Part shown: in pieces, positions 10,911 to 58,913 of the stretch | How the letters are laid out: each line of letters opens with the position of its first letter | How positions within the stretch are numbered: the stretch's first letter is position 1 | DNA from: Escherichia phage UPEC06 | Sequence record: MW250786 | Length of the DNA: 64,000 nucleotides | Reading direction: 5' to 3' (one strand) | Position numbers and translations under genes: made by a program | The notes under the pieces: generated by a model | What the model saw: the letters and a program-made list of their open reading frames with translations, nothing else | Told to the model about the DNA's origin: nothing | Database searches by the model: none

Positions 10911-10919
10911 TAAAAATTT

Positions 10920-11798: not shown

Positions 11799-11883
11799 TT
11801 GTATTTCTCCTCTTTAGTGTTTAAATAGTAAGTTAACTTCTTTGCTTCGATGGGGTAAATAATACCCCATTCAATATCTTCTG

Positions 11884-12231: not shown

Positions 12232-12237
12232 TTCTCC

Positions 12238-12414: not shown

Positions 12415-12417
12415 TAA

Positions 12418-13194: not shown

Positions 13195-13209
13195 GACCCC
13201 TTATCATTG

Positions 13210-13671: not shown

Positions 13672-13673
13672 TA

Positions 13674-15041: not shown

Positions 15042-15050
15042 AGTTTCTCC

Positions 15051-15386
15051 TTAGTTTGCTTTGATTTCTAATGTGTATTTTGCCAGACCAAAACCAATCT
15101 TGTCAAGATCTTCTAGGGATTTTTTAACCTCTTCAAAGACCTCTTTAGTTACATTATTTCCACTAACAATATACCGTATCTCAGGACTCCCATCCCCCAC
15201 AACTTCGAAATCATAGTCCTTAAAAAATACGATCACTCCGGCTGCACCATTCTCGTCACTACCGGATAGCATGATTCCCTCTTCATTAGCAACTTGAAAA
15301 ATTCGATCTTTGAAATCATATACCTTACCAACAACAAACTTAAGAGAGTTAAATTTAGTCTTGTAGCCTTTGAATCGGTATTTCAT
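15051..15386 (-). CDS. hypothetical protein
   Basis: ORF track. Confidence 0.35.
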   Translation of the reverse strand: MKYRFKGYKTKFNSLKFVVGKVYDFKDRIFQVANEEGIMLSGSDENGAAGVIVFFKDYDFEVVGDGSPEIRYIVSGNNVTKEVFEEVKKSLEDLDKIGFGLAKYTLEIKAN

Positions 15387-15604
15387 TTAGTCTCCTTTAG
15401 TTTTCCACAAAGAGCACCTTCAACATAGTCAGGGTTCTCTTTAAAGAACTGATCATTCTTTTTTATGATGACACCAATATTTCGACGGAGAAATGCGAAA
15501 GCTTTGATCCCACGATACCAAGCGTCAAAGCTGGACTTCTTCAGTTCTCCACCTGTATAGACATTGGTGAAATAAAACGGATGAGTCTTCTTACTTATCC
15601 TCAT
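15383..15604 (-). CDS. hypothetical protein
   Basis: ORF track. Confidence 0.3.
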   Translation of the reverse strand: MRISKKTHPFYFTNVYTGGELKKSSFDAWYRGIKAFAFLRRNIGVIIKKNDQFFKENPDYVEGALCGKLKETK

Positions 15605-15613
15605 TGTTCCCCC

Positions 15614-15967
15614 CTAAACAGAGAAAAGAACCTCTTCTTTCTCCACATGAAATTCAAAATCGTCCACAAGATTAGATTCCCAGTCCTTACTTTCATGGTA
15701 ACTACACGTCCAACGGTAAACACCAGGACCAGAATCTGAATCTGGGGGAAGACCAATATACTCCGCTTCAGGACCCTCGTCAAGCAATGCAGGGTGAATA
15801 TTTGGTGCTTTAAGGACGGTTACCCGTCCACTGTAATCGACAGCCACGATCCAAACACTACCGTTAGGAGATTCGAAAACTTCCTCTTCTGGATCTTCTT
15901 TGATAAGAGTTTTGTTTGGCTTTTTCAAGCAGGTTGCTAATCCAGAATCAATCCACTGGTTTGACAT
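15614..15967 (-). CDS. hypothetical protein
   Basis: ORF track 15614..16105 trimmed to the internal Met (MSNQWIDSGL) because the upstream part overlaps the 15987..16358 gene. Confidence 0.3.
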   Translation of the reverse strand: MSNQWIDSGLATCLKKPNKTLIKEDPEEEVFESPNGSVWIVAVDYSGRVTVLKAPNIHPALLDEGPEAEYIGLPPDSDSGPGVYRWTCSYHESKDWESNLVDDFEFHVEKEEVLFSV

Positions 15968-15986
15968 TCCGTTACTAAGCCATTTT

Positions 15987-16358
15987 TCAGACAGACTTTT
16001 TCTTTTTTGTGACACGTTTCTTCTCCTTTTCCACTTTTGGTGGTGCTTTCTTTTTAGGTTTGGTCCAAGCCTTTTTAGGCTCATCTGGCTTCTCATACAG
16101 CCCAAGCACGACTCTTTCTATCGCACTCATAGGAACGATTGTCATCTTCCGTCTCTTAGCGTCAGGAAGCTGTAACTCCCAAATACCCAACCAATAAGAG
16201 AGATCATCAATGCGATCCTGTACCCAAGGGTCCGGCTTCGGAATAGTTAGTAGTCTACTCAACTCTTCATTGCATGTCAACAAACATTCTTCAAGTTTTT
16301 CAACTGGCGTATTAAAAACAAAGGCCGTCTTGTCAAAAGGCTTCTTCTCTGTCGTCAT
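15987..16358 (-). CDS. hypothetical protein with lysine-rich C-terminal tail
   Basis: C-terminus KKAWTKPKKKAPPKVEKEKKRVTKKKKSV. Confidence 0.35.
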   Translation of the reverse strand: MTTEKKPFDKTAFVFNTPVEKLEECLLTCNEELSRLLTIPKPDPWVQDRIDDLSYWLGIWELQLPDAKRRKMTIVPMSAIERVVLGLYEKPDEPKKAWTKPKKKAPPKVEKEKKRVTKKKKSV

Positions 16359-16362
16359 AGCG

Positions 16363-16557
16363 TCACTCTTCAGTATCGTAGGTGTTATTCTTGATTGCTT
16401 CCAGTAATACGTCCAAAGGTACAGTGAAAGACTCTACAGTGTCCATACCACCAACCTTATAGCCGTGAACAATCTCACCACCTTCGCGATTACACACCAG
16501 AAGAGAATATCCACCAGCAATGTTTTCACTGATCTCGATATCAACAACTTTCATCAT
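16363..16557 (-). CDS. hypothetical protein
   Basis: ORF track. Confidence 0.3.
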   Translation of the reverse strand: MMKVVDIEISENIAGGYSLLVCNREGGEIVHGYKVGGMDTVESFTVPLDVLLEAIKNNTYDTEE

Positions 16558-16981
16558 CAGTCTCCTTTTTGTCCTCTACCCAACCATAAGCCTTCATACA
16601 CCCCTGGTAATTAGGCCACCTTTTATTTACAACGTTCTCAAGCCACTCAAGATCTGTGCTTACATGGATGTATTCGCTGTACAGTTCATCAAGAGTGTCA
16701 ATAAGATCAGGACGCTCTTTCAAATACTCTCGAACGTCCCCGATCCTTTTTCCAAGTTCACAATTTTCACATTTACACACTGCTAGATACCTCCTCCAGA
16801 ACGCGTAATCTTTCTGCCAATACCCAAGTCCCACCTTGAGACTCAGGTCTTTGAAAATTAACAATGCCTTGAACTTCAACCTTGAACCACTTACGGATCT
16901 CTCCCGATTTAAGGTTTGTCTTGAGATGAGGTGCTTCAGGTTTAAGTGTACAATGCCAACCTGGTCGTACCGAAAATCCAC
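16541..16981 (-). CDS. hypothetical protein (start uncertain)
   Basis: ORF track; 5' part overlaps 16773..17111 in another frame. Confidence 0.25.
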   Translation of the reverse strand: MDFRYDQVGIVHLNLKHLISRQTLNRERSVSGSRLKFKALLIFKDLSLKVGLGYWQKDYAFWRRYLAVCKCENCELGKRIGDVREYLKERPDLIDTLDELYSEYIHVSTDLEWLENVVNKRWPNYQGCMKAYGWVEDKKETDDESC

Positions 16982-17111
16982 GAGTGGGGTGATTTTCAGC
17001 TTCCATCCACTTATTCTTTTCTACGACTAAAGATCTATTGATAAATAGGGGACCTATTGTACCGTCTTTCCTGACTCTAAACAACTTGTACGCCACAATA
17101 GACTTTTTCAT
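16773..17111 (-). CDS. hypothetical protein
   Basis: ORF track; begins MKKS. Confidence 0.3.
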   Translation of the reverse strand: MKKSIVAYKLFRVRKDGTIGPLFINRSLVVEKNKWMEAENHPTRGFSVRPGWHCTLKPEAPHLKTNLKSGEIRKWFKVEVQGIVNFQRPESQGGTWVLAERLRVLEEVSSSV

Positions 17112-17407
17112 CCCATATGCTCCAAAACAAGAAGGTGCTTATAACGATGATTATGTGAATAGACCAATAGAGCCATATCCATCCAAGCAACCTCGTCAGC
17201 GTCACCAATCACAGAGAGGCATAAGTTGTCACAGTTCTGTCTTACTTTCGCCACAGTGAGTTCTACACCCCTTCCTTCGAGGATTTCTTCGAGGTATTTA
17301 AACTGGTCATTCAGTTCTGTACACCACAAGTAGAACCGAGGCTTTTCCTGTGCACGAAAGATATTTTCCAACTGTTCACTTAATTCATCACTAAAGATCA
17401 ATTTCAT
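17108..17407 (-). CDS. hypothetical protein
   Basis: ORF track. Confidence 0.35.
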   Translation of the reverse strand: MKLIFSDELSEQLENIFRAQEKPRFYLWCTELNDQFKYLEEILEGRGVELTVAKVRQNCDNLCLSVIGDADEVAWMDMALLVYSHNHRYKHLLVLEHMG

Positions 17408-17546
17408 GATTTATTTTTCCTCTCTCCGATACCTTTGTTGAGATACTTAACCAAACTAATACCAAATGCTATCAGCATCATAAACCACACTGTTCCAAAC
17501 TCAACAATGTTCAACCCAAAAGCTACAACATCGTTACACTCTTTCA

Positions 17547-17828
17547 TCAGATCATCTCCAAAGTTATTAGTACATTATCCAAATCTTCAGCCACAAGCTG
17601 TAAGTCAGGCTTCATACTATCTTCCACACGATGATAAATCAAGCCTTTTTCCACATACTGATTCATTACTCCGTAATAGTTCCCCAAAATGGTGTACCAG
17701 TCACATTCGTAAACAGTCACAACACATACTTTCAGTCCAGCTTTTGCTGAATGCCAAGCTTCTCTCATAGCTTGAAGATGACTTAATTCATTTTCTGATA
17801 ACTTTTTACATTTATTATTCAAAATCAT
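17547..17828 (-). CDS. hypothetical protein (first gene of the leftward array)
   Basis: ORF track; lies at the edge of the divergent intergenic region. Confidence 0.35.
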   Translation of the reverse strand: MILNNKCKKLSENELSHLQAMREAWHSAKAGLKVCVVTVYECDWYTILGNYYGVMNQYVEKGLIYHRVEDSMKPDLQLVAEDLDNVLITLEMI

Positions 17829-17926
17829 TATAAAGATAACCTGTTGTTTGTTAAAGTAGAGTCACTATACCTATGTAAAAACTCCATGTCAAGACTTTAA
17901 ATTTAAAAAATTTAGTATAAAATCTA

Positions 17927-17993
17927 TAAAAGATCCTTTAAGATCTGTAGATCTATAGATCATATATATAAAAAGATCTTATAAAAGATCTTG
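17927..17993. repeat. cluster of GATC-containing short repeats (AAAGATCTT / AGATCT)
   Basis: Six GATC cores in about 65 bp, including two AAAGATCTT and two AGATCT palindromes. Confidence 0.6.
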
Positions 17994-18015
17994 TTTTTAT
18001 TGTTTTTAATAATAA

Positions 18016-29176: not shown

Positions 29177-29192
29177 TCTTAATAACTGATTA

Positions 29193-29220
29193 AAGGTCAC
29201 CTTCGGGTGGCCTTTTTTAT
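29193..29220 (+). terminator. rho-independent terminator after the major capsid gene
   Basis: AGGTCACC-TTCG-GGTGGCCT hairpin followed by TTTTTTAT. Confidence 0.6.
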
Positions 29221-29946: not shown

Positions 29947-32900
29947 ATGGCTGAATATAATGATAAGGTCGTGGAAGCATTCGTTACTGCTCCTGATCCT
30001 GTCGTAACTACCACTGGTGGTGGAGTTATTTTTAACGGTATTGAAACGGAAGATACTGTATCTACCCTGTTAGTTGGTAATGGTACTGCCTCTTCCCCTC
30101 TGCAAGCTCAAGTTAAGCTATCTCGCCGTGCAGGTAACGCCCTGACTCTGGTTCAGACTGATAACGAGGAAGGCTTGTTTGCTTCCGCTGGAGATGCTAA
30201 AGTATCTACCTCTCAGGCGAACGTTGCAAAATACGTCACTGCGGAAGAAGCTGCTGCTCAAGGTGATGCCAGTTTGGAAGGTGTTCTGGTTGAGCCAGTT
30301 CATGCTACCACTACCGCTGTTGGTGACGCACTGGAAATTACCGCAGATCCTCTGGTTGCTAAAAACTCCCGTATATCCCTGAAAGTTTCCACCTCTTCAA
30401 CTAACGCTTTGTCTGTAGACCCTGATGGTTTGGCAGTTAAAGTTTCCCCCGCTATCGACAACAGCTTGCAAGTTCGTGAAGGTGCACTGTATGTAGCTCC
30501 AGTTGGTGCTGACATTTCTCAAGATGCAGGTAACAAACTGGAACAACGTTCAGATGGTCTGTTTGTAGAAACCATCAAAGGTGACAAAGGCGATCAGGGT
30601 GAACAAGGACCAGCAGGTCCACAAGGCCCAGCCGGAGAAACTGGACCTGCTGGCCCGCAGGGTGAAAAAGGGGATAAAGGGGATACTGGAGAAGTCGGTC
30701 CTGCTGGCGCAACTGGACCTATCGGTCTGACTGGCGCAACTGGCCCTCGTGGTGTAGAAGGTCCTCGTGGCCCTGCTGGTATTGGTATCAACATCCTCGA
30801 CACCTTGGCATCTGAAGATCAATTGCCTTCTGTTGTTGATCTTGCGAATGGTGATACATACGTAATCGGACAGAGTTTCTTTACCGTTATCACTGAAGGT
30901 GGTATCAAACAATGGAGAAACGTAGGTAACTTCGCTGGACCTGAAGGTCTTTCTGCATTTGAAGTTGCTGAAACCGCAGGCTTTGTTGGAACAGTCGATG
31001 ACTGGTTGGCTACCCTTCGTGGTGCTGACGGTATAGGTCTGCAACTCCTTGGTTCTTTCCAGCGTATCGAAGATCTTCCTCAAGAAGAGAACAAACCTGG
31101 TGATGCCTACATCATTCAAGAAAAGATGTATGTTTGGACTGGTGATACAGATGGCTGGCAACCTGTAGGACAGATCGGTCCTGAAGGTCGTTCTGCTTAT
31201 CAGGTCTGGCTGGCTAACGGGAACGTAGGTTCTCAGCGTGAATTCCTTGAATCACTGAAAGGTGAGAAAGGTGATACTGGCGATCAGGGTCCTCAGGGTA
31301 TCCCAGGTGCAGATGGTAAAAATGCTAACGCCATTAATATCTTAGGTTCCGTTGCAGATCAGGCGAGTTTGCCAGAAGGTGCAGATGCAGGTGATGCTTA
31401 CCTGATCGGTACTAACGTATTCGTTTCTGATGGTGCTGGCAACTGGCAAGACTTGGGATCTTTCCAAGGTCCGCAAGGTCCTACTGGTGCTAAAGGCGAC
31501 AAGGGTGACAAAGGGGACAAAGGGGACAAAGGCGATAAAGGTGATGACAACTATGCCATCGCAGTTGCTAACGGTTTCCAAGGATCAGTAAATGAATACC
31601 TTGCATCTATCAAGGGTGAGAAAGGTGACGTTGGTGCAACTGGCCCTCGTGGATTGGCTGGTCCACAAGGTGAACAAGGTCCTGTTGGTGCGGGTCTGAA
31701 TATCCTTGGCTCAGTAGCTTCCGAAGATCAATTACCTCAGACTGGTATTAGTGAAGGTGACGCTTATCTGATTGAAGCTGATCTTTATATCTTCACTGGC
31801 GGTCAGTGGACTAACGTTGGTAACATCAAAGGTCCTCAGGGTGATATTGGTCCTGTAGGTCCACAAGGTCCTATCGGCTTGACTGGTGCACAGGGACCGC
31901 AGGGTGCAACAGGAGCACAAGGCCCTGCTGGCCCACAAGGTGAGACGGGTCCACAAGGTGGTATCGGTCCACAGGGAGAAACTGGAGAGAAAGGCGATAA
32001 GGGCGATAAAGGCGACAAGGGTGATATCGGAACGGGTATCGTAGCTCGTGGCGTTGTTGCAACCCAAAGTGCACTTCCTTCCGGCGCAGCACCTGGTGAT
32101 TTCTACGTTGTAGAAGATGAAGGTAACGGTTACGCTTGGGACGGTACAGCTTGGGTTTTAACTGGATTAGCTCGTGGACCTCAAGGTCTTAAAGGCGATA
32201 CCGGAGAAACCGGAGCCAAAGGTGATAAGGGCGATAAAGGTGATGCAGGCGATGCACTTAAGCTGAGAGGCTTGGTTGCAACTTCCGCTGAACTGCCTTC
32301 CACTGCTGAACTTGGTGACTTCTATGTCGCTGAAGACACCGGAATTGGTTACGCTTGGGATGGTGTTGCTTTCGTTTCTGCCGGAACCGTTAGAGGACCG
32401 CAAGGTGAAGTAGGGCCGCAGGGTGAAGTTGGTCCTCAAGGACCTCAAGGCGAGAAGGGAGATGCTGGCGAGCAAGGTCCTCAAGGATTGGTCGGTGAAA
32501 CAGGTGCAAAAGGTGATAAAGGAGATAAGGGTGACGTTGGCTCTGGTCTGATTCCGAGAGGAACTTTACCATCTCAAGCAGATCTTCCTCAAACTGGTGA
32601 AGTTGGTGACTTCTACGTAGCTAACGATACTGGTATTGGCTATGCTTTTGATGGAACTGCATTCGTAGAAGCTGGAGTTGCCCGTGGTCCACAGGGTGAA
32701 CAAGGACCCCAGGGTGAACAGGGACCACAAGGACTTAAAGGTGATACTGGTGAAACAGGTGCTCAGGGACCTCAAGGTGTTCAAGGTGAGAAAGGTGATA
32801 CCGGAGAACGTGGAGAGGTAGGTCCGCAAGGTGATCAGGGTCCGCAAGGTGAGCAAGGTCCTCAGGGTGATATCGGACCAGGTGTAGAGATCATTGGACG

Positions 32901-33747
32901 ATTTGATACCTCTGATGAATTACCTTCCACGGGTACTTTGGGTCAAGGTTACCTTATCCAAGGCGACTTCTGGGGTTGGACTGGTGCAGCATACGAGAAC
33001 TTGGGTCGTATTCAAGGTCCGGTTGGACCAGTAGGTCCTACGGGTGACCAAGGACCACAAGGCCCTGTCGGTAACAAAGGCGATAAAGGCGACCAAGGGA
33101 CCCTTTGGGTAGTTTTTGCTCGTGCACCAATGGTGAGCGATGGTCGTGTTAACGATCTGTACCTCAACTCTTCCACTCTGGAATATTACCGTAAAACTTC
33201 CGCAACGAACTGGGCACTGCTCGGATTCTTAGGTGGTGGTAACGTGTATGACGCACCAGGGGACGGAAAGCTGTATGTCCGTACTGATGGTGGTTGGGTT
33301 GAATTACCTACCGCAGAAGTTCTGGAAGCACCTCGTGATGGTAACCAATACGTCCGTAAAGACGGCGCTTGGACAACTGTTACAGTTCCTGTAACGGAAG
33401 CACCACTTGAAGGTGGATTCTACGTCCGTGAAAATGGTGCGTGGGTTAAACTGGATCAGTACGATTTACGTGTTGTTGCTTCAACTGGTGCAATTGATGC
33501 AAGCTCTGGTAATGCTTGGACTTTAGATGGTACAACCAACAAGTCCTTGACTATCACCGGATTGCCAGCAGGAAGGGCTAAAACCATAGTTTTACGATTC
33601 ACTGGTAACGGTGGTCAGATTAACTGGGATAGCCAGATCGCTTGGTCTAACGGAACAGCACCGACCCTCGGAGCTACCCGCACTATCCTGACCCTGTTCT
33701 GGGATGGTGAATTCCTGACTGGTACTCAGGCAATGACTGTAGGTTAA
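29947..33747 (+). CDS. collagen-like repeat fibre protein (side-tail-fibre-like)
   Basis: 1266 aa; long Gly-X-Y runs alternating with eight ~50-aa modules; C-terminal YVRxDGxW repeats x3 typical of phage tail-fibre repeats. Confidence 0.7.
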   Translation: MAEYNDKVVEAFVTAPDPVVTTTGGGVIFNGIETEDTVSTLLVGNGTASSPLQAQVKLSRRAGNALTLVQTDNEEGLFASAGDAKVSTSQANVAKYVTAEEAAAQGDASLEGVLVEPVHATTTAVGDALEITADPLVAKNSRISLKVSTSSTNALSVDPDGLAVKVSPAIDNSLQVREGALYVAPVGADISQDAGNKLEQRSDGLFVETIKGDKGDQGEQGPAGPQGPAGETGPAGPQGEKGDKGDTGEVGPAGATGPIGLTGATGPRGVEGPRGPAGIGINILDTLASEDQLPSVVDLANGDTYVIGQSFFTVITEGGIKQWRNVGNFAGPEGLSAFEVAETAGFVGTVDDWLATLRGADGIGLQLLGSFQRIEDLPQEENKPGDAYIIQEKMYVWTGDTDGWQPVGQIGPEGRSAYQVWLANGNVGSQREFLESLKGEKGDTGDQGPQGIPGADGKNANAINILGSVADQASLPEGADAGDAYLIGTNVFVSDGAGNWQDLGSFQGPQGPTGAKGDKGDKGDKGDKGDKGDDNYAIAVANGFQGSVNEYLASIKGEKGDVGATGPRGLAGPQGEQGPVGAGLNILGSVASEDQLPQTGISEGDAYLIEADLYIFTGGQWTNVGNIKGPQGDIGPVGPQGPIGLTGAQGPQGATGAQGPAGPQGETGPQGGIGPQGETGEKGDKGDKGDKGDIGTGIVARGVVATQSALPSGAAPGDFYVVEDEGNGYAWDGTAWVLTGLARGPQGLKGDTGETGAKGDKGDKGDAGDALKLRGLVATSAELPSTAELGDFYVAEDTGIGYAWDGVAFVSAGTVRGPQGEVGPQGEVGPQGPQGEKGDAGEQGPQGLVGETGAKGDKGDKGDVGSGLIPRGTLPSQADLPQTGEVGDFYVANDTGIGYAFDGTAFVEAGVARGPQGEQGPQGEQGPQGLKGDTGETGAQGPQGVQGEKGDTGERGEVGPQGDQGPQGEQGPQGDIGPGVEIIGRFDTSDELPSTGTLGQGYLIQGDFWGWTGAAYENLGRIQGPVGPVGPTGDQGPQGPVGNKGDKGDQGTLWVVFARAPMVSDGRVNDLYLNSSTLEYYRKTSATNWALLGFLGGGNVYDAPGDGKLYVRTDGGWVELPTAEVLEAPRDGNQYVRKDGAWTTVTVPVTEAPLEGGFYVRENGAWVKLDQYDLRVVASTGAIDASSGNAWTLDGTTNKSLTITGLPAGRAKTIVLRFTGNGGQINWDSQIAWSNGTAPTLGATRTILTLFWDGEFLTGTQAMTVG
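31495..31545 (+). repeat. tandem 9-bp coding repeat (GDK)n inside the collagen-like gene
   Basis: ggcgacaag/ggtgacaaa/ggggacaaa units encode [17 protein letters not shown]; similar runs near 31981-32020, 32215-32250 and 32515-32535. Confidence 0.6.
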
Positions 33748-33754
33748 TTTTTAA

Positions 33755-33779
33755 ATGGGGGCTTCGGCCCCCTCTTTTC
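33755..33779 (+). terminator. stem-loop / weak terminator after the collagen-like fibre gene
   Basis: GGGGGC-TTCG-GCCCCC hairpin followed by TCTTTTCAG. Confidence 0.4.
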
Positions 33780-33793
33780 AGAAAGGAGTTAAT

Positions 33794-34429
33794 ATGGTAA
33801 TCGATAAGATTTATGGCTGGACACCTATGATCCGTATGTCTGACATGCGATATCCGGTATACCTGGCCGACTATCGTGCTGAGTATCCCAACGTATCTAT
33901 CGGCAGTTTTGTTTATGCTGTTGGTATGGCTGAGGTTGGATATCATGCGGTTTATGACGTAACTATGCCGCAAGGTGATGTTGTTACTGAAGGATCGCCG
34001 GAATTACGTGAAGATGGATTCTGGTACAGAACTTGGAATGTTAGAGACTTCACCGAACAAGAGATCGCTGATAACCTTGCTCGTGAAAAAGAGCAGCGTA
34101 TCAATGAGGCTCGGATGACTCTTGATAATGAGAGATCCGAAGGGGTTGTTGTAGCCAGCAAACGATATCAGTCAGACGCTCAAGCTTTTGCTTATTATAG
34201 TTCCATCTCTGCTGTTGCTAAAGACTCACCTGAAGAAGTTTTTCACTTAGTTACTTCTGATAATCAGGTAGAAGAATTCCTCGGTGATGAAGTTATTGCC
34301 CATATAAAAGAAATTCAAAAAGTTAACGCAAAAGTTTATGACGAGTTTGCGAAAATTGTAAAATCTATCCGTGAAGCAAGTTCTTCTGAAGAAATCCCTC
34401 AAGTACCTCCCTCTTTTCAAAATCTTTAA
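33794..34429 (+). CDS. hypothetical protein, possible fibre assembly/chaperone protein
   Basis: Start at ATG after AAAGGAG (track start 33755 lies in the hairpin); sits between two fibre genes. Confidence 0.3.
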   Translation: MVIDKIYGWTPMIRMSDMRYPVYLADYRAEYPNVSIGSFVYAVGMAEVGYHAVYDVTMPQGDVVTEGSPELREDGFWYRTWNVRDFTEQEIADNLAREKEQRINEARMTLDNERSEGVVVASKRYQSDAQAFAYYSSISAVAKDSPEEVFHLVTSDNQVEEFLGDEVIAHIKEIQKVNAKVYDEFAKIVKSIREASSSEEIPQVPPSFQNL

Positions 34430-34459
34430 TAGTAAATAAACTTACTTAAGGAGCATTGC

Positions 34460-36058
34460 ATGAGTAAAAGTATTAGAGGAATGGCAGGTCATAATAACGG
34501 TGTTTTTTACGGAAATGCCCTTTATGACTTAGAAAGAAAGGTTAAAATGGATTTTAAAGATATCATGGAAAAAGGTGATTCCAGCCAAACACCTGGTCCA
34601 GAAGGTCCACAAGGACCAAAAGGGGATACTGGCCCTGCCGGACCTGTAGGTCCTGTAGGTCCGCAAGGACCACAGGGTGAGATCGGGCCTCAGGGTCCTA
34701 CTGGCCCTCAAGGACCTGTCGGAGCTACTGGTCCTACCGGACCTGAGGGTAGTGAAGGACCACAAGGCCCTCAAGGAGAGCAAGGTATAGCTGGTCCAGT
34801 AGGACCAAAAGGGGATACTGGTGAACAAGGTCCTCAGGGAGAGCAAGGACCCGCTGGTCTAAAAGGCGATACTGGGGATATTGGCCCTGCTGGACAAGAA
34901 GGGCCAATAGGTCCGACTGGCCCAACTGGCCCTGCCGGACCAAAGGGGGATGTTGGTCCTCAAGGACCTAAAGGCGAAACTGGTGAGCAGGGACCTATTG
35001 GACCACAAGGCCCACAAGGGGATGTTGGTCCTGTAGGTCCAGCAGGGCTTACTTTCCGAGGTTTTTATGATCCTTTAGTTGAATACTCTCAGAACGATAC
35101 TGTATCTTACAACGGATCTACTTATTTTTCCTTAAGAACAAGTATAGGCGCTAGTCCAGACACATCACTTGAAGATTGGTCTTTATTGGCAGCAGAGGGA
35201 GCAAGAGGCCCACAAGGCCCAACTGGCCCTCAGGGACCTAAAGGCGACCAGGGTGAGATTGGTCCTGCCGGAGCTACCGGTCCTGAAGGTCCGACTGGCC
35301 CAACTGGCCCGACTGGACCCGCTGGACCGAAAGGGGATAAAGGAGATAAAGGAGAGGTTGGACCTCAAGGACCTAAAGGCGACCAAGGGGTTATGGGAGA
35401 ACAAGGACCGCAGGGTATCGCTGGAACTACTGGACCTGCTGGTCCACAAGGACCTAAAGGCGACAAAGGAGATGTTGGCCCTCAAGGTCCCGCTGGTCCA
35501 CAAGGTTTGGATGGTATCCAAGGCCCAGCGGGTCCCCAGGGGATTAGAGGAATACAAGGACCTAAAGGCGACACTGGTGAGCAGGGAGAGAAAGGGGATA
35601 AGGGTGACAAGGGTGAGAAAGGTGATGCAGGAATATCAAGAACATTCCTTAAGGTTAAAACATCATCTGTTGGCACCAATCACGCGATCAAAATGCCAGC
35701 ACCTCTTGATAACCTATCTATAGGCATAAGGCTTGATTCAGCGGTACGTTTTAGTATTAGGGGTTGGATTGATACAGATACGACAGCCAGAAATGTTAGG
35801 GGGGATATTGAAGGCTTCAATAACTCTGAAAATTACTTCAATACAACGGTAAGACAATTGATATCTTCATCAACTGCAACTGGCACAACCCTTGTAGCCG
35901 ATATCAGCGAATTCCAAAGAATTAGGCCATATACATTTAGCTTCTTTGAAACAACAACAGAGACAATGTGGAGAGTAACTATAACTCTCTTCACGTCAGG
36001 GTATGTAGTAACTGACAATCAATGGCTATGTATAGAAGCTGTTAGACTTGATGCGTAA
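34460..36058 (+). CDS. collagen-like repeat fibre protein 2
   Basis: 532 aa; two long Gly-X-Y blocks separated by a short non-collagen segment; non-collagen C-terminal domain. Confidence 0.65.
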
Positions 36059-36111
36059 AATAACTGACGAAGGGACTCGCCTACTGATTTGTTCTTTCCT
36101 TTAATAATAGC

Positions 36112-36140
36112 AAAGCCACCTTCGGGTGGCTTTCTTTTTA
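36112..36140 (+). terminator. rho-independent terminator closing the collagen-like module
   Basis: AGCCACC-TTCG-GGTGGCT hairpin followed by TTCTTTTTAT. Confidence 0.6.
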
Positions 36141-36160
36141 TACAAATGACTTTCTCTTTT

Positions 36161-36184
36161 AATTGTGGTAAGATGATACAATAC
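36161..36184 (+). promoter_or_regulatory. candidate promoter motif (AATTGTGGTAAGAT...TACAAT)
   Basis: ATTGTGGTAA(A/G)AT also occurs at 36745-36766 upstream of the next gene. Confidence 0.3.
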
Positions 36185-36197
36185 TCTGGAGGAAACT

Positions 36198-36716
36198 ATG
36201 CATACTGATGAAGAAGTAATTCAACTGGTAAGAACATTTTTAGGTGGCCTTACTGAAGAAGAGATGCCTGACAGCATCATTTTATTTTTCTACAACAAAT
36301 GGAAGGTCTGCTATGATTTGGAAAACAGACCAGACCAATTCTCAATAATCCTTTACAATACTGTTTTAGATTGTGTTCGTTGGCTCTTGGTACAGAACGT
36401 ATCAAGTGGAGCTTCTGGAATACGTGAACGGTTTGAAAAGGTTGGTGATGAAACTATCTCTGTTAAATATGGAGATAATTCCGGCAACTGGCAGGACTTC
36501 CTCGATTACTTACTTGAGCACCCAGAATACATTGATCCTTGCTTAAAAGAGAACTCTGGCCTAGGGCTGGTAATAATAGGTGGTGTTCGTAAAAATGAAG
36601 TTAATCGCGTCCGTCGTAACCCAAATTCATACAATGGGTTTATGGAGAAGGGCATTTATCCGGCACCAGGGACCAGATCAGGAGTAAGGAAGCGAAATCC
36701 GTGGATGGTCAACTAA
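36198..36716 (+). CDS. putative head-tail connector/neck protein
   Basis: By position between head and tail genes; SD GGAGG. Confidence 0.3.
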   Translation: MHTDEEVIQLVRTFLGGLTEEEMPDSIILFFYNKWKVCYDLENRPDQFSIILYNTVLDCVRWLLVQNVSSGASGIRERFEKVGDETISVKYGDNSGNWQDFLDYLLEHPEYIDPCLKENSGLGLVIIGGVRKNEVNRVRRNPNSYNGFMEKGIYPAPGTRSGVRKRNPWMVN

Positions 36717-36779
36717 AGCTTTGAGTTTGTTGCTTTTGCTCATCTATTGTGGTAAAATAACTTTCATGGAGAAATAACC

Positions 36780-37241
36780 GTGAAGAAAACATCAACAGTT
36801 GATTTTTCTGTCATGGATCACTATTTCGACCAACTCTCTGAATTGGAAACAAAAGAGATTGAGGTGGGCTTCTTTGATGAGGCTCACTATTCTGGTCTAA
36901 ATATGGCGACTCTTGCAGCAATTCACGAATTAGGATGGAACAATCTTCCTGAACGTAACTTCATGCTTTCTACTTCGATTCATTATCGCGGTGGACTCAT
37001 CAAGAACCTCAAACGGCTTAATGATGATTTGCTGAAAGGTAAGTCATATAGCCCTGCACTCAAGAAAATCGGTAAGGACTACGCTGACAGCATTCGTTTT
37101 ACAATTGATCAAGGTACGTTCTCCAATAACCGAGTATCCACTGCATGGGCGAGCTATAAAGGATTCAGTGATGCAATGATCCATTACGGCGATCTTTCAG
37201 ATGCAGCGAAGTTTAAGATTGTTCCTCTTACGAAAGACTAA
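36780..37241 (+). CDS. putative head completion/neck protein
   Basis: GTG start with GGAGA SD; position. Confidence 0.3.
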   Translation: MKKTSTVDFSVMDHYFDQLSELETKEIEVGFFDEAHYSGLNMATLAAIHELGWNNLPERNFMLSTSIHYRGGLIKNLKRLNDDLLKGKSYSPALKKIGKDYADSIRFTIDQGTFSNNRVSTAWASYKGFSDAMIHYGDLSDAAKFKIVPLTKD

Positions 37242-37250
37242 GGAGGCATA

Positions 37251-37691
37251 ATGTCTCGTGGCTATTTATTGTTAAGTCGTCGCAACCAGCTTATCCCTCG
37301 TATCGAGGTTGAAGGTCGCAGACGTTCTTATAAAAAGGTTGATTTGGATGACCCATTCGACAACGGTGGTCTGGAAATTGAATACACACCATTCACGGCT
37401 GTTGAGTGTGTCATTCAACCAATCCGAGGCAAAGCGCTTCGTGATCAAAACAACCAACTGACTACAGCAGGTGAGGAAGATTACGACTCCTATACTGTGT
37501 ATTCAGAAACTGTATTGTATCGTGCACAAGAAGGAACGGATAAACTTTCTGATCAATTGTGGCTTCCCAATTCTGTTGGTGAGAACAGTTGGTTTACAGT
37601 AATGAAAGCTGACCGTTATCCAAGTGCAGGCAACATGAGATATCGTTACTATCTGATCGCTGTACCTGTTGGAACAGAGGGTGGATTATAA
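37251..37691 (+). CDS. putative neck/tail completion protein
   Basis: SD AGGAGG; position. Confidence 0.3.
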   Translation: MSRGYLLLSRRNQLIPRIEVEGRRRSYKKVDLDDPFDNGGLEIEYTPFTAVECVIQPIRGKALRDQNNQLTTAGEEDYDSYTVYSETVLYRAQEGTDKLSDQLWLPNSVGENSWFTVMKADRYPSAGNMRYRYYLIAVPVGTEGGL

Positions 37692-49390: not shown

Positions 49391-51025
49391 ATGGCTAGAC
49401 CAACAACACCGATTGTTGTCTTTGCGGCACAAGATGTTAACCTTCCTGGCACTGGAAGACCTAACAAATCAAAACCGATTGATGACCTTTTAGCGAAGGG
49501 CTATGACAAAGGACAAAAACCAGCGGCAGAGGAATTCAACTATATTCTTCACCAATCTGGTGCTTGGCTTAACTGGATCGTAGAAGAGAAGTTCCCTGAA
49601 GTTGAAGAAGAATATAAGCGACTGATTCAGGAACTCGAAACACGAGTAAACAATCAACTGGAAGTTATTCGTGAAGATGTTGCAAACGTAAGACAATCAG
49701 TTGCAACCTTGAGAACTTATGTAGAGCAAACTGTTGCAGACATTCGTCGTGAGATCACTGCGGTTGATCAGCGTGTTACTCGTTTGTCTCAAGACTTGGA
49801 TAATGCTGTTTCCAGATTAAACGCCCGTATTGATGAGCTTGAACCTCGTTTAGTTCCGATCGGTGCAATTCTTACTTGGGCAGGCCAAACACCTCCGGCG
49901 GGATTCTTGGAATGTAATGGACAGGTATACAGTACATCTCAAAACCCGAAACTTTATCAAGTCCTTGGTAGGAACGTAGTACCTGATTATCGTGGATTGT
50001 TCCTTCGTGGCTGGGCGCACGGATCTGGCGCTTACGATCCTGACTCTGGTCGTGCTTTGGGTTCTATTCAAGGTGATGCGATTCGAAACATTACTGGCGC
50101 GATGGGTTACGAAAGTATTCGTACTGACCACGGATATCGTGAGAGTGGTGCACTTTATACGCAATATAACTCAAACTCAGGTCCTGATCACGATCGTAAA
50201 AACCCAGCGGGTGATGTTCGATTTGATGCAAGCCGTGTTGTTCCGACTGCACCAGAAAACAGACCTAAGAACGTCGCAGTGATGTATATTATCAAGACTG
50301 ATCAGGCACAAGGTACGGGAAGTCTGTCACCAACTGCACTTGTTACTACGCCGGACACTATTACAAACCGCGTAGGGTTTACTCAAGGGATTTCTGCTCA
50401 GGTTCTCCCTGCAAACTTGGCAAGTCAATACCCTGTGACGTGGACTTCTCAGAACGGTAATGTTGCAACAGTGGATAGTGCAGGTAACGTAAGATTAACT
50501 GGTCCAGGTGAAACTAACATTATCGCCTCTATCTCTACTGGTATCTCTGCCCAAGTTAAAATAGTTTCATATACACCACTGACAGCAATCAGTATCGGTA
50601 GCATACCTAGTGTAGAGGTTAATGATTCCGAGGTTATTCCTGTTAATAGAACACCTGCTAACTCTAACGAGCCTCTCGTGTATTCTACCAGTAATGCTAA
50701 CGTCGCTGTTGTAACTCAAAGCGGTTACGTATCTGGTGTTTCTCCAGGTACAGCGGTAATAACAGTTCGTGGGTCTATCACAGGCATCCAAGCCACAAGA
50801 CAGGTCACTGTAATTCCTGCAACGATTGTTCAGACCATAGAGGATGTTCGTTTAGGTCTTGAGCAACAGACGACAATGAATGGCGATGATTATACAAATC
50901 CTGTGCGTGCTCCGGCGGGTTGTGTTATTACTGGCGTTGTATCAGCAGGTCTTGGGTTAAATCAAGGTTATTATAAACCGATCCAGAAGCGTATATCTGG
51001 CGTATGGGTAACGGTGGAGGGTTAA
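49391..51025 (+). CDS. tail fibre protein with tail-collar domain and Ig-like repeats
   Basis: PIGAILTWAGQTPPAGFLECNGQVYSTSQNPKLYQVLG...YRGLFLRGW matches the phage tail-collar motif; C-terminal half has repeated Ig-like segments. Confidence 0.6.
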   Translation: MARPTTPIVVFAAQDVNLPGTGRPNKSKPIDDLLAKGYDKGQKPAAEEFNYILHQSGAWLNWIVEEKFPEVEEEYKRLIQELETRVNNQLEVIREDVANVRQSVATLRTYVEQTVADIRREITAVDQRVTRLSQDLDNAVSRLNARIDELEPRLVPIGAILTWAGQTPPAGFLECNGQVYSTSQNPKLYQVLGRNVVPDYRGLFLRGWAHGSGAYDPDSGRALGSIQGDAIRNITGAMGYESIRTDHGYRESGALYTQYNSNSGPDHDRKNPAGDVRFDASRVVPTAPENRPKNVAVMYIIKTDQAQGTGSLSPTALVTTPDTITNRVGFTQGISAQVLPANLASQYPVTWTSQNGNVATVDSAGNVRLTGPGETNIIASISTGISAQVKIVSYTPLTAISIGSIPSVEVNDSEVIPVNRTPANSNEPLVYSTSNANVAVVTQSGYVSGVSPGTAVITVRGSITGIQATRQVTVIPATIVQTIEDVRLGLEQQTTMNGDDYTNPVRAPAGCVITGVVSAGLGLNQGYYKPIQKRISGVWVTVEG

Positions 51026-51027
51026 TT

Positions 51028-51540
51028 ATGAGAATGAATAACTTCAAGCTTTATACACCGGAAGTTAAATCTTTCGGAGAAGGAGTTCAGTATTTTCAGG
51101 ATGATAAGGGTCGTGATTTCTACGACTCTCGTGCACTATTCAAAAAGAAATATGTTGTTTTCTTTGATGAGCATAATATTGTCCGTGGCTGGGCAAAGAG
51201 TGAAGAAGTTACCCGTCTTCACCCAGGTGGTTTATCTGTTGTGGATCTTAATACCCTCCCTAAAGATTTTTCTTTGCAAGGTGGTGTTTGGTCATTCAAC
51301 GGAAAACAGGTAGTTAAGGCAGACTATGATCCTGCTTTTAGCACCGCTGCAAGAAAGGCTGGCATTCTGCAAGTGATCGGTTCTGTTATCGTTCCGCTTC
51401 AGGATGCTGTTGAATTGGGAGATGCTACAGATGATGAGCTTGAGAAGTATAACGATCTTCGTAAGATGAGAGTTAAAGTCATGCGTATCCCTGATAGCAC
51501 CTCCCCTGGTGATATCGACTGGTCAGAGTTCACCTTTTAA
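51028..51540 (+). CDS. putative tail fibre assembly protein
   Basis: Directly downstream of and overlapping the tail fibre gene end; SD GGAGGG. Confidence 0.35.
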   Translation: MRMNNFKLYTPEVKSFGEGVQYFQDDKGRDFYDSRALFKKKYVVFFDEHNIVRGWAKSEEVTRLHPGGLSVVDLNTLPKDFSLQGGVWSFNGKQVVKADYDPAFSTAARKAGILQVIGSVIVPLQDAVELGDATDDELEKYNDLRKMRVKVMRIPDSTSPGDIDWSEFTF

Positions 51541-51579
51541 CCTTAGATGAGTCGGGCTTCGGCCCGACTATGGAGACTT

Positions 51580-51912
51580 ATGATTGTTGATATAATGGCA
51601 GTTCTTAAAGCACTTTGGGGTCTTTTAACATTTATTTTGCTGGGTGCACTAAAGATCTTTTACACCGACTTTAAAAAATTAGAGTCACGTCAAAGCGAGC
51701 TTGAAAAAGATGTTCTTCGTTTGAAGGAATCTGCGGTTACTAAGGATAGTATCGATGCCATTCTTGACCGTAAGATAAAACATATCACTGATACGATCCA
51801 GGATATTAGGACCGATATCACAGATATGCGAAAGGAAGCAAAAGAAGAAAACCACGCTCTACAGAAGGATATTCGAGAATTACTAAACAAAATTATTGAG
51901 AACCGCAAATGA
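51580..51912 (+). CDS. membrane protein with coiled-coil (holin-like or other membrane function)
   Basis: N-terminal TM helix (MIVDIMAVLKALWGLLTFILLGAL) then charged coiled-coil; start at internal ATG after the 51550-51569 hairpin. Confidence 0.35.
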   Translation: MIVDIMAVLKALWGLLTFILLGALKIFYTDFKKLESRQSELEKDVLRLKESAVTKDSIDAILDRKIKHITDTIQDIRTDITDMRKEAKEENHALQKDIRELLNKIIENRK

Positions 51913-52367
51913 TTACAGCCATAATATATGGCATTTGTTTCGTAATCCTTGCTACTCGAAAAGAGAGTGGAACAAAGATAATGGCTGGGCTTTGCCTAGC
52001 CTATCTCGTATTGGAGAACCTGATCCTTTGGTTCTTCTCTACGCAACAATATTTCGACATCACTCTTTATTTTAATGTTCTCTGGACATTGGATTCGATA
52101 CTGCTTTTCACTATGGGTTGTACAGTGAAAGGATTACGACAAAAACTTATCGTATGCCTAAGTATTCCGTTCATGCTTATTCAAGTGTTTGCAATCCAAT
52201 ATCCAGAATTGTTCCCCTTATGGGTTTACGAATTCGCTCTTAGAGACGCTCACAAATATTTCATAGAAACCTTTGTGTTCGTTTATTCTTGGAAGGATAA
52301 TACCGTACCGGAATGGATAAGGACAGCAGTGGTGATATTTCTGGTGCTCATTGCCCATATGGTATGA
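51909..52367 (+). CDS. polytopic membrane protein (about 4 TM helices)
   Basis: Four hydrophobic segments; overlapping start/stop with neighbours. Confidence 0.4.
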   Translation: MITAIIYGICFVILATRKESGTKIMAGLCLAYLVLENLILWFFSTQQYFDITLYFNVLWTLDSILLFTMGCTVKGLRQKLIVCLSIPFMLIQVFAIQYPELFPLWVYEFALRDAHKYFIETFVFVYSWKDNTVPEWIRTAVVIFLVLIAHMV

Positions 52368-52389
52368 ACATTGATAATGAAGGTGATCT

Positions 52390-52650
52390 ATGTTAAAATT
52401 TCTCAAAGACCTCGTTACCTCTGCGGTGGAACCAGATAAAGCTTCCCATACAAAGTTTTGGTCTAACGTAGGTATGGCTGCTATGACTGCCGTCTTTCTA
52501 TGGTATGGATTCAACAATACATTGCCTGAATGGTATGTGTGGCTTTATGCTCCTACGGTAGTGGCTCCACACCTTTTGAGTGATCTCATTAACCTCCGCT
52601 GGGGATTATCTTTGAAAAAAGATAAAGGCCCTTCTGACGAAAACAAGTAA
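52390..52650 (+). CDS. small membrane protein (holin-like topology)
   Basis: Two hydrophobic segments and a charged C-terminus (KKDKGPSDENK). Confidence 0.35.
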   Translation: MLKFLKDLVTSAVEPDKASHTKFWSNVGMAAMTAVFLWYGFNNTLPEWYVWLYAPTVVAPHLLSDLINLRWGLSLKKDKGPSDENK

Positions 52651-52662
52651 GAGGAGAAAACT

Positions 52663-55600
52663 GTGTCGTCTAATACTGATATATTGGCACTGGTAAGTAC
52701 CGAAGCAGATCTTGCTGTTGACCAGATCATTGAAGACTCTCGAAGACTTCATTTGATCGTCAACGGAACTGCAACAGAACAAGCTGTTACAGAAGATGGT
52801 AGCTTAATCCCTAGTGTACGTAAAGCGATAATTGATAACTTTTATTTTAAAACTCCACCGTTACCGTGGAGAAATGGAAGTTCAGTTATTGAATTCAATC
52901 AGTTATATGCATTTACCGATGTAAATGGCAACGTAACTTGGTGGTATGCCCCAGGTGCAACTACCAGCACTCCTGTCGTTATGCGAGACAGTCCAATCAA
53001 CGACGGTAAGTTCAGACCTTTCTTCGATAAAGGTAACATTCAAGAAACTTACGCCCCTATCCTTTCCCCTGTTTTTCGTGGAAACCCTACTGTACCTCTT
53101 GCTGCTGAAGGTGATAACTCATTTACTATCGCGAACACAGCTTGGGTTAGTCGAGAAATAGAAAAAGTACGTGGTGAGGTTCTTGAAGAGTCCAGAGGTG
53201 AATTCCAAAACATTATCGTTGCAGATGATGCGAGTCTGAAAGATCTCTATGTAAGTGGAGAAACCATCTTCACTGGCGACAGGATCGCTGCTCTTGATGC
53301 CGAGTTATCTTTAAAAAGATTACGAATGACAGGGACAGACGCAGAAATCGCATTTGAACAAAATGGCGTTCCACCCCAGGCAGGGTTAACAAAAAGAACA
53401 AATATCAAGCCTTTCCAAGTCACCACTGGTGTTGTTGATACCGATAATATAACTGCGAGAGAGATCAAGGTTGGAAATACCTCTGTTTCCACGAATTCTC
53501 TTGATGTTGATGGATTCATGCAAGGTGACTATCTTCACTTAGAGGGTAATGCCAATAACGCAGAAGACCGCCCACAACTGATCGTTGACGGTATTGCGGA
53601 AATAAATACTCTTCGTGTGACGAACACCATTGAAGGATTGAAGGCTGACGTTGAAGGTCTGGATATTAATCCTAACAGCATTGTGGTTGAAAGAACTGCG
53701 GAGATTAAGGGAAATACAACCCTTGGTGCAGATCTTGCCGTTACTGGCAATACGGTATTGAAAAATGTAAGAATCGAAGGTACTCTCACGGGTGCTGGAA
53801 TCGGTGTTGACGGGAAAGACATTTCCCCTCGTAATGTGAGTGCAACATCCGTTACTGTGGCAGAGAGCTTAAACATTACTGGACCTACTACGGCTTCCGG
53901 CGACGTTACGGTAAACAACCTGACGGTTAATGGAACACTCAGGGCCGATATCGACTTTGGAACTGCTGCTGTTGAATTCCAAGATCTGACTGTGACTAAC
54001 AAGGCAACGATCAAGGATCTTGAAATCACCGGAAACCTGACGGGAGTTACAGTCTCTGTTGATGGTGAAGCAATCTCCCCTTCTTCGGTGACAACCACAG
54101 GAAACATCGATGTTGGTAACAACATGCGTGTTCGTGGTGATATTACTCTGGACGGTGAGTTAAGTATCCCAAGCTTAGATACTGGGGACATAACGGCTGC
54201 TGCAATTGATGGTGCGAGCCTCTCAGTTAGTGGCGACATTACCGCAGGAACAACTTCGACCACAACGGTTAACAATCTTGTAGTCACAGGAACCACTACA
54301 GGAATCACTGTAACGGGCAATGTTGACGGACAAGACATTCTCCCATCCTCTGTAGAAACAACGTCTGTAGTGGCCTCTGAGAGAGTTACAACGGCAAACC
54401 TGACATCTACAGGTGACACTCAGGTAAATAACCTGACAATTACTGGAACTGTAACAGGATTCGATGTAGATCTTACCGGAAAGGACATTCAGGTTAATAC
54501 CTTGACGGTTACTCGCGGGTCAACTTTTGACGAGGTTACTGCTAATAACATAACCAACAATCAAAAGATTACCACAGTAGACCTTCAGGTTACTGGAAAC
54601 CTGACGAATGCAGACGGTGAACAATTCTTTGCAAACGTCACTGGTCAAGATATACTTCCTAATAGTGTGCAGTCTGCAACGTCTGTGAGAACTAAAACGC
54701 TACGTGTCGAAGAGACTAGCCTATTGGAAGGTGCTGTTACCTTAAATGATGGTTTGACTATCACTGGTGGTAATATCACATCTGTTCAAGGTCAAGCAAG
54801 CTTCAATGACGTACAGGTATTTGGATCTCTTCTGGACGCGAATGGTAATGCCTTAGGGACAGCGGAAAGCATAAACGGTAAAGATATCTCTCCTCGTAGC
54901 GTTACTGCTCAAGTTGAGATTCAGACTACTGCAATTGTTGCTACAGGTCAAGCTGAAGTTGGTTCTTTGATTTCAACTGGACAAGTAATGGCAGGAAGCT
55001 TAGAGGTTTCAGGGATAGGTAATATTGGTCAGGTTATTACCGACGACGTTCGTGCTGGAAAGGTAACTTCTGGTAACACCGTTATTACTCGTACTGTTGG
55101 ATCTAGCGATCCTGCTCTTGAAGTTCGTGGACCAGGTGAGATTCAGGGTGACCTTAATGTAACCGGAACTGTAACTGGTAACATTGACCTTAGCTCTCAA
55201 GACGTTAACGTTGCTTCAATGACCTCAACGGGAACAGTAAATGCCCTTTCCATTGAGTCTCGTACATCGGTAACTGGATTGTCTGGTACATTCGGTGAAG
55301 ATTATGAAGGTGCACCTACCTATGGTATAACTTCTCTTTCCGGCGCAAACATCAACAAGAACCTTCGAGTTGGTGGAAACCTGACTGTTGTTGGTAACAT
55401 CTCTGGCAATATCGACTTATCTGGAAAGGCGATCGAGCCTGCATCTTTGTCTACCACGACAGCTACGTTAACGACGGCGAACATAACAGACCTGACTGTA
55501 ACTGGTCAGTTTAATATCCCGACTGTACCGTTAAATGTTCAATCCCTTAGTTCTGAAAACGCTATTTCCGCAAGCAAGTTCAGCACCACACCAAAAGAAG

Positions 55601-55896: not shown

Positions 55897-55898
55897 TA

Positions 55899-55925
55899 GA
55901 GGCCCTTCGGGGCCTTTTCTTTTTA
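55899..55925 (+). terminator. rho-independent terminator
   Basis: GAGGCCC-TTCG-GGGCCTT followed by TTCTTTTT. Confidence 0.55.
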
Positions 55926-55935
55926 GGAGGACAAC

Positions 55936-58395: not shown

Positions 58396-58478
58396 TTAAA
58401 TCTCCTTTAACTATTGAACACACCACTTAAGGCCGAGAAACTATATTACAACTAACTTATTTGAATTGCAAACAACTT

Positions 58479-58859: not shown

Positions 58860-58913
58860 CTTCTTTCCTCTGTTGTTTAAGTGGGGCCATTATGCCCCAA
58901 GTAGTACTTTCTG

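Follow-up and report, generated by a model that had tools for sequence, protein, structure and literature searches.

A collagen-like fibre gene among the head genes of Escherichia phage UPEC06, with a probable role as a head-borne adhesin with an exchangeable tip

The 64,000-nucleotide stretch analysed here (the window), from Escherichia phage UPEC06 (sequence record MW250786), is that of a Vequintavirinae-like (rV5-related) myophage of Escherichia coli; its nearest sequenced relatives are the Escherichia phages A73 and W70 (Vequintavirinae). Between its capsid and head-completion genes lies an open reading frame (ORF) on the plus strand, at positions 34460-36058, which an initial annotation made from the sequence letters had singled out as the gene of a second collagen-like fibre. 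The ORF is real, is preceded by an AAGGAG ribosome-binding site before its ATG, and encodes a protein of 532 amino acids (aa) that is a collagen-like phage fibre, roughly 90 nm long if triple-helical. Taken together, the evidence presented here suggests that this protein is probably a homotrimeric accessory adhesin fibre borne on the head and ending in an exchangeable tip. The site of attachment would most likely be the capsid surface, with the head-tail neck as the second choice.

The chain opens with a short non-collagen segment, continues through two collagen segments separated by an insert domain, and closes with a non-collagen tip (Table 1). Two collagen segments had been correctly recognised in the initial annotation, where they were placed at about residues 20-195 and 225-390; their true limits are aa 46-198 and 247-393, so that the earlier borders were 20-25 residues off at two places. 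Similarly, the insert string that it quoted has the right letters and takes in flanking triplets, while the strict insert (FRGFYDPL...SLLAAE) covers aa 199-246. The non-collagen C-terminus, estimated at about 140 aa, has 139. The Pfam family PF01391 (Collagen) matches the protein with 159.3 bits (gathering cut-off 27.2; E value 1.9e-47), and the longest uninterrupted run of Gly-X-Y, 51 triplets, compares with a maximum of 9 across 2000 residue shuffles, so that the collagen repeats greatly exceed what chance would give. Over both segments, 56 of the 100 triplets have Pro at X (65% in segment 1), and Y is most often Gln, Lys, Thr or Ala, segment 1 being rich in Gln, Thr, Val and Ala at Y. This composition, with Pro-rich X and polar or charged Y positions, fits a stable triple helix without hydroxyproline, and the chain would form a homotrimer. 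The shaft lengths given in Table 1 were computed at 0.286 nm per residue. Bacterial collagens of the BclA and Scl types resemble the UPEC06 protein in having an N-terminal anchor, a Pro-rich Gly-X-Y stalk free of hydroxyproline, and a C-terminal globular domain, and BclA (1wck) matches its collagen region.

The insert is predicted to be a small beta domain resembling carbohydrate-binding modules of the CBM5/12 type. Its match to Pfam PF02839 (CBM_5_12) is below threshold (17.0 bits, E value 0.006; cut-off 26.2), as it is in all eight homologues tested (14.7-23.2 bits). A profile of the insert family matches Cis13/All3316 (7b5h; E value 2e-5) from a cyanobacterial contractile injection system, the chitin-binding domain of chitinase A1 (1ed7; E value 0.004), and several chitinase carbohydrate-binding modules (E values 0.014-0.05). 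In the AF2 model the domain has four short strands (pLDDT 82.7). The family carries an invariant Tyr and an invariant Trp, and the domain is present in 63 phage records.

The tip is predicted to be a 10-strand beta-sandwich (pLDDT 81.6; pTM 0.78). The same fold recurs in the tips of the collagen-like proteins of JS10, Aeromonas phage 65.2 and BECP10, at 10-17% identity, and the tip varies between close relatives. A C1q/TNF-like (BclA-type) jelly-roll head, as might be expected from the layout of collagen followed by about 135 aa, was ruled out by fold searches. No likeness to an enzyme was found by Pfam, PDB-sequence or fold search, and the structure prediction and profile search that the initial annotation had proposed for the C-terminus have given a beta-sandwich without homology to any enzyme.

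Comparison with related genomes indicates that the gene has two origins. The orthologue is A73 gene 143; it and its W70 counterpart, like CR3 gp011, occupy the same genomic position and have the same order of parts (collagen, insert, collagen, tip). Local blastn gives 86% nucleotide identity to A73 across 33700-35488, followed by collagen-coding sequence (35489-35608) that matches neither A73 nor Rogunavirus. Positions 35609-36061 are 73.5-74.4% identical to Rogue1 and C119, and from 36097 to 36300 the identity to A73 returns (81%). At the protein level, the last ~190 aa of A73 gene 143 differ from those of UPEC06, and the A73 tip is of another type, related to the tips of JS10 and AugustePiccard. 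The UPEC06 tip is 69-74% identical to the C-terminal part of five proteins from Rogunavirus (T1-like, Drexlerviridae), and Rogue1 gp21 aligns with the UPEC06 protein over aa 143-532 at 53% identity, a stretch that takes in the insert domain and the second collagen segment as well. The search with the tip did not return Rogunavirus members such as Sf12 and Sd1, whose N-terminus is 93-98% identical. Judged from these alignments, the UPEC06 gene is chimeric: its front comes from the Vequintavirinae lineage, its tip is of the Rogunavirus type, and the two meet within the collagen repeats. In our reading the tip is an exchangeable cassette, gained from the equivalent gene of a T1-like (Rogunavirus) siphophage by recombination within the collagen-coding repeats. 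An exhaustive search with the tip of 1.8 billion representative proteins gave two genuine clusters, plus a spurious repeat protein (P0003), and a word-indexed search gave one fragment only. Because the exhaustive search yielded only two real clusters, the tip family is rare at the sequence level.

The first 45 residues are 96% identical to A73 gene 143, 43% identical to CR3 gp011, and in the range of 35-63% identical to the syntenic proteins of A7_1, CR3, CR8, PBES02, Pectobacterium phages, SSBI34 and LTH01. All homologues of this segment are such syntenic proteins from related phages. It has no Pfam match, neither to a baseplate or tail attachment domain nor to any other, and attachment to the tail is still compatible with this. 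A motif common to the N-termini of Vequintavirinae and T4-like members was seen by eye; it was not significant by hidden Markov model (E values 0.66-6.9) and was not used as evidence. The Rogunavirus proteins (Rogue1 gp21, C119 gp03, and those of phiKP26, Jk06 and phiJLA23) have a homologous insert, second collagen segment and tip. They differ from the UPEC06 protein in their N-terminus of ~108 aa, in which two DUF1737 repeats follow one another, and in their shorter collagen segments (33 and 29 triplets), and they come from siphoviruses of another family. Homologues in general keep the order of anchor, collagen, insert, collagen and tip.

The presence of such proteins in virions has been demonstrated for a homologue. 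When virions purified on CsCl were separated by SDS-PAGE, matrix-assisted laser desorption/ionisation mass spectrometry identified Rogue1 gp21 in a band of 52.7 kDa, at 59.5% coverage; three bands were analysed, and the other two were the major head protein and the major tail protein (PMC3496638). The claim of the initial annotation that the gene encodes a second, distinct collagen-like virion fibre is therefore supported, the protein being a full-length homologue of phage collagen-like proteins of which one is known from virions. As far as the homologues show, neither absence from virions nor an enzyme-like C-terminus, the two findings that the annotation had named as speaking against it, was encountered.

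The other collagen-like gene of the window (start 29947) encodes a protein of a different kind. Its triplets are distributed over ten segments (23/3/7/9/9/23/9/17/22/10), compared with 51 and 49 in the UPEC06 fibre under study, and a Fibritin_C (foldon) match is located at about aa 1075-1140 of 1266 (E value 1.8e-10). By eye, three tandem foldon-like hairpins (DAPGDGKLYVRTDGGWVEL / EAPRDGNQYVRKDGAWTTV / EAPLEGGFYVRENGAWVKL) can be seen in this first fibre, together with about eight short 'GD.Y......W...G' knobs between the ten collagen segments. The initial annotation had described the C-terminus of the 532-aa protein as unlike that of the first fibre, which is borne out by BLASTP (E value 0.51), and had suggested either two fibre types or one heteromeric fibre. 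A heterotrimeric or other heteromeric fibre would be in line with the closeness of the two genes, which share a strand and a structural module and lie within 4.5 kb of each other. However, the triplet segments of the two proteins cannot be put in register, their N- and C-termini are unrelated, the genes stand in separate terminator-bounded units, and homologues of the 532-aa protein occur without a homologue of the first fibre in T4-like and T1-like phages. Assembly of the two proteins into a heteromer is thus very unlikely, and two distinct fibre types is the reading that the data support.

The position of the gene in the window is given in Table 1, in which gene assignments were based on PHROG and Pfam, except for the gene starting at 39881 (by position only) and that starting at 41237 (by position and size only). 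Because terminator-like hairpins bound the pair on both sides, the gene of the 211-aa protein and the fibre gene form a two-gene transcription unit. The fibre gene is located ~13 kb upstream of the baseplate genes. The canonical tail-fibre module encodes a 544-aa Ig-domain or collar-type fibre, a 178-aa tail-fibre assembly protein, a 1077-aa fibre and a 411-aa protein; its assembly chaperone gene (Tfa) lies at 51004, beside these other fibres, and none adjoins the collagen-like gene.

Table 1. Position of the collagen-like fibre gene, its parts and its surroundings in the 64,000-nucleotide window of phage UPEC06
Feature	Position	Strand	Remarks
Terminase	start 22937		
Portal	start 24440		
Protease	start 25994		
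Head decoration protein	start 27726		
Major capsid protein	start 28181		
Terminator-like hairpin	29192-29215		after capsid gene
Inh-like protein	start 29301		
First collagen-like fibre gene	29947..33747	+	1266 aa
Terminator-like hairpin GGGGGC-TTCG-GCCCCC	33757..33782	+	hairpin at 33757-33772, with T-rich tail; parts first fibre gene from two-gene unit
Upstream structural protein gene	33794..34429	+	phrog_4998; 211 aa from ATG 33794; ribosome-binding site AAAGGAG
Ribosome-binding site AAGGAG	34448..34453	+	6 bases 5' of ATG; read from sequence
Non-collagen N-terminal segment, aa 1-45	34460..34594	+	presumed virion-attachment module
Collagen segment 1, aa 46-198	34595..35053	+	51 unbroken Gly-X-Y triplets; ~44 nm if triple-helical
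Insert domain, aa 199-246 (48 aa)	35054..35197	+	predicted small beta domain resembling CBM5/12; proposed mid-fibre knob or hinge
Collagen segment 2, aa 247-393	35198..35638	+	49 Gly-X-Y triplets; ~42 nm; holds recombination joint
C-terminal beta-sandwich tip domain, aa 394-532 (139 aa), and stop codon	35639..36058	+	presumed ligand-binding head
Exchanged cassette	35489..36096	+	stretch without A73-like nucleotide identity; local blastn
Intrinsic-terminator-like hairpin AAAGCCACC-TTCG-GGTGGCTTT	36112..36143	+	hairpin at 36112-36133, then T-tract; ends transcription unit of the fibre gene
Head-completion, Neck1 and related genes	36198-37691		head-completion/Neck1 at 36198 and 36780
Tail sheath	start 38462		
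Probable tail tube	start 39881		position only
Probable tape measure	start 41237		807 aa; position and size only
Baseplate wedge	start 47243		
Canonical tail-fibre module with own assembly chaperone	49391-57171		3' of baseplate wedge

A head-gene environment recurs among the enterobacterial homologues. In the window and in seven homologue contexts the gene is embedded among head genes; this holds for every enterobacterial lineage examined, in none of which is the gene part of a tail-fibre module. In the T1-like phages Rogue1 and C119, the collagen gene is situated between the genes of a Phage_cement protein and the major head protein, the product of the gene upstream of Rogue1 gp21 (gp20; L002:4417-4884) belonging to the Phage_cement family with an E value of 2.8e-23. 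In AugustePiccard, also T1-like, it lies between a 'head outer capsid protein' and the major capsid protein. In the T4-like phages JS10, CGG4-1 and Aeromonas phage 65, it belongs to the gp24-hoc-inh region and stands directly 5' of Hoc-like genes, overlapping hoc-2 in phage 65. In AV124 (Mydovirus) it is found 3' of the major capsid protein gene and an Inh-like gene, and in CR3, as in the window, between the major capsid protein and head-completion genes.

Directly 3' of the AV124 collagen gene, a 98-aa ORF (L009:5757-6053) matches the C-terminal part of Phage_head_fibr (phi29 gp8.5); its 43 bits exceed the gathering score. In AugustePiccard, the gene 5' of the collagen gene (bas01_0009; L006:2005-3294) is that of the 'putative head outer capsid protein', a GDSL/SGNH esterase. 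Like the esterase bound to the phi24B capsid, this protein may be a further head appendage directed at glycans; a common N-terminal anchor of this esterase and the AugustePiccard collagen protein was not found.

The T1-like homologues also offer a possible means of attachment. At their N-terminus stand two DUF1737 repeats in tandem; in Bas01 the domain scores 26.7 bits, which exceeds the gathering score. In phi24B, DUF1737 binds the capsid as a hexamer on the central pore of hexons, according to a cryo-EM preprint (bioRxiv 10.64898/2026.04.10.717836). A collagen trimer with two DUF1737 per chain would provide six domains for a hexon pore, and with these six anchors a fibre of three-fold symmetry would no longer be at odds with a capsomer of six-fold symmetry. 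The phi24B protein, gp84 (the NanS-p esterase), combines an N-terminal DUF1737 capsid anchor with a distal glycan-directed module, and the T1-like homologues use the same anchor. It differs from the UPEC06 protein in possessing DUF1737, in having an esterase in place of a collagen shaft, and in being proteolytically processed. A further precedent is provided by the collagen-like capsid binder gp12 of SPP1 (PMC7602432). Because gene contexts, DUF1737 anchors and the SPP1 gp12 precedent all point in the same direction, a head location is likely for the family.

The foremost alternative, which we hold to be unlikely, is that the protein belongs to the ordinary side (lateral) tail fibres and, fixed to baseplate or tail, acts as a primary receptor-binding protein, with a gene that merely stands outside the main tail-fibre cluster. 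The best PHROG of the protein is phrog_5073 (E value 5.5e-145), which is labelled tail fiber, and A73 gene 143 is annotated 'side tail fiber protein Stf'. Moreover, collagen repeats are common in tail fibres (PMC7344957; PMC4621102), the exchange of a C-terminal cassette is typical of receptor-binding proteins, and several sets of lateral fibres are a known trait of the Vequintavirinae (PMC8594841). In contrast, the UPEC06 gene is far from the baseplate genes, bounded by terminators and without an adjacent assembly chaperone, as described above. The T4-like homologues are at the hoc locus, outside the conserved tail-fibre clusters. The T1-like homologues lie between cement and capsid genes and have the capsid-binding DUF1737 N-terminus, while the lateral tail-fibre locus of the Drexlerviridae is elsewhere, between the recombination and the primase/helicase genes (PMC8594841). 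The labels themselves are automatic, and the same family has also been called 'DNA polymerase I'. This label is carried by homologues in Jk06, C119, phiKP26, phiJLA23, Sf12 and others (e.g., L002:4978-6423 and L003:1246-2691), and phrog_22681, labelled 'DNA polymerase', matches the collagen region; it is a mis-annotation that has spread between records. The UPEC06 protein is a new member of an automatically annotated family, phrog_5073. A 532-aa entry in BFVD/UniProt is 100% identical to it, and an exact look-up in another protein collection gave no match.

We consider somewhat more improbable again a neck or collar whisker like T4 fibritin, held at the head-tail junction by the head-completion and neck proteins encoded downstream, possibly together with the first fibre. 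The gene stands directly 5' of the head-completion and Neck1 genes, the neighbouring 1266-aa fibre has the foldon-like hairpins detected by Fibritin_C, and a short 45-aa N-terminus would suit docking onto a ring of neck proteins. However, the T1-like homologues have a hexon-binding anchor and sit upstream of the capsid gene, away from the neck genes; T4-like phages encode fibritin elsewhere, their homologues of the UPEC06 protein being at hoc; and by Pfam the UPEC06 protein has no sequence similarity to fibritin.

Several observations weigh against placing the UPEC06 fibre on the head. The Pfam scan gave no DUF1737, Phage_head_fibr or other recognised capsid-binding domain in the UPEC06 protein; its first 45 residues match nothing in Pfam, and their likeness to the T4-like homologues is not significant. 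Gene position is circumstantial evidence for a site on the virion, and the family goes by 'tail fiber' both in PHROGs and among GenBank annotators. The insert domain, which likewise favours a tail fibre, is shared by proteins that do belong to tail modules, in Streptomyces phage phiScoe56 and Geobacillus virus E3 (both with Gram-positive hosts), and by Cis13, a protein in the fibre position of a contractile injection system. The CBM5/12 likeness is sub-threshold in Pfam, and ligand binding is only predicted. The phi24B work is a preprint concerning a podovirus with single-copy DUF1737. In the literature searched, no localisation of any family member was found, and a search aimed at head fibres of collagen type with a known location in these groups of phages returned only SPP1 gp12.

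On balance we favour the head-borne fibre, which might work as follows. The short, lineage-specific N-terminal segment (aa 1-45) would attach it to the virion, and the two triple-helical shafts, ~44 and ~42 nm, would separate this anchor from the tip. Between the shafts the CBM5/12-like domain would form a three-copy knob or hinge, and the 139-aa beta-sandwich would end the fibre as an adhesin. Knob and variable tip would contact glycans (polysaccharides) on host or environmental surfaces weakly and reversibly, and such contacts would make encounters more frequent ahead of the engagement of the true tail fibres. We propose that the fibre is non-essential and accessory because of its sporadic distribution: the Drexlerviridae anchor occurs in only 24 phage records, and there were no matches from rV5 itself. 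Both the dispensability and the glycan binding are put forward by inference. A comparable role, that of a non-essential head appendage mediating weak adhesion, is played by T4 Hoc, phi29 gp8.5 and T5 pb10 (PMC7602432). Unlike the UPEC06 protein, these are Ig-like or coiled-coil proteins; there is no relation in sequence or fold, and Phage_head_fibr does not match the UPEC06 protein.

Another comparable protein, SPP1 gp12, is very small (~64 aa) and is not known to carry an adhesin insert or tip domain; its gene lies directly upstream of that for the SPP1 major capsid protein. It is a collagen-like trimer and a dispensable decoration at the centre of capsid hexamers (PMC7602432), whereas for the UPEC06 fibre we infer the attachment site.

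More tentatively, and at slightly less than even confidence, we suggest that the collagen-like proteins of enterobacterial phages, namely rV5-related myophages, T4-like myophages and T1-like siphophages, make up a so far unrecognised class of long head fibres (~50-90 nm) that spans phage families. Each member would have an anchor to the capsid that is specific to its lineage, a collagen shaft bearing a CBM5/12-like knob, and a beta-sandwich adhesin tip that can be exchanged freely. Three features of the family appear to be undescribed, namely the head-gene context in three phage families, the tandem DUF1737-collagen fusion of the T1-like phages, and the exchange of tips across families. If such a class is real, tips would cross phage families by recombination in collagen repeats, and capsids, besides tails, would bear adhesins for host range or habitat targeting. 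The clean exchange of a cassette between a myophage and siphophages, with its joint in collagen-coding repeats, is a neat example of collagen repeats serving as recombination linkers.

If the fibre is indeed borne on the head, the 'tail fibre' annotations of this family in coliphage genomes, including those of phages for therapy and for the control of E. coli O157, are misleading, and host-range predictions that use these proteins as receptor-binding proteins would be wrong. A long collagen-based adhesin would also join the short list of head appendages (Hoc, pb10, phi29 gp8.5 and SPP1 gp12). The modular design of anchor, shaft and tip could serve for the display of binding domains on capsids.

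The remaining observations concern the surroundings of the gene. For the gene immediately upstream, the listed start (ATG 33755; 224-aa ORF) sits within the GC-rich terminator hairpin at 33757-33772, and the true start is likely the ATG at 33794 with its AAAGGAG site, giving 211 aa as annotated in A73. Homologues of the 211-aa protein occur in 110 phage records, well beyond the range of the collagen fibre; among these records are jumbo phages that infect Erwinia (Ea35-70 group), Pseudomonas (EL) and Ralstonia (RSL2). In Pectobacterium phage CB7, CB7_10 and CB7_11 are virion proteins by mass spectrometry (PMC7344957); CB7_10 is the orthologue of the first fibre, and CB7_11 that of the 211-aa protein (40% identity). 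By analogy with CB7_11, the upstream protein is taken to be a conserved structural protein of the virion. Homology between it (as 224 or 211 aa) and the Hoc-like proteins encoded 3' of the T4-like homologues was not found. In the stretch from the terminator to the next gene (36134-36197), TGATACAAT resembles an extended -10 promoter and could restart transcription for the head-completion genes; a consensus scan made no call there. Over the whole window, the sign of the GC skew flips at ~18 kb and ~57 kb (blocks 1-18000, 18000-56000 and 58000-64000), and these blocks match those of minus- and plus-strand ORFs, i.e., divergent and convergent transcription.

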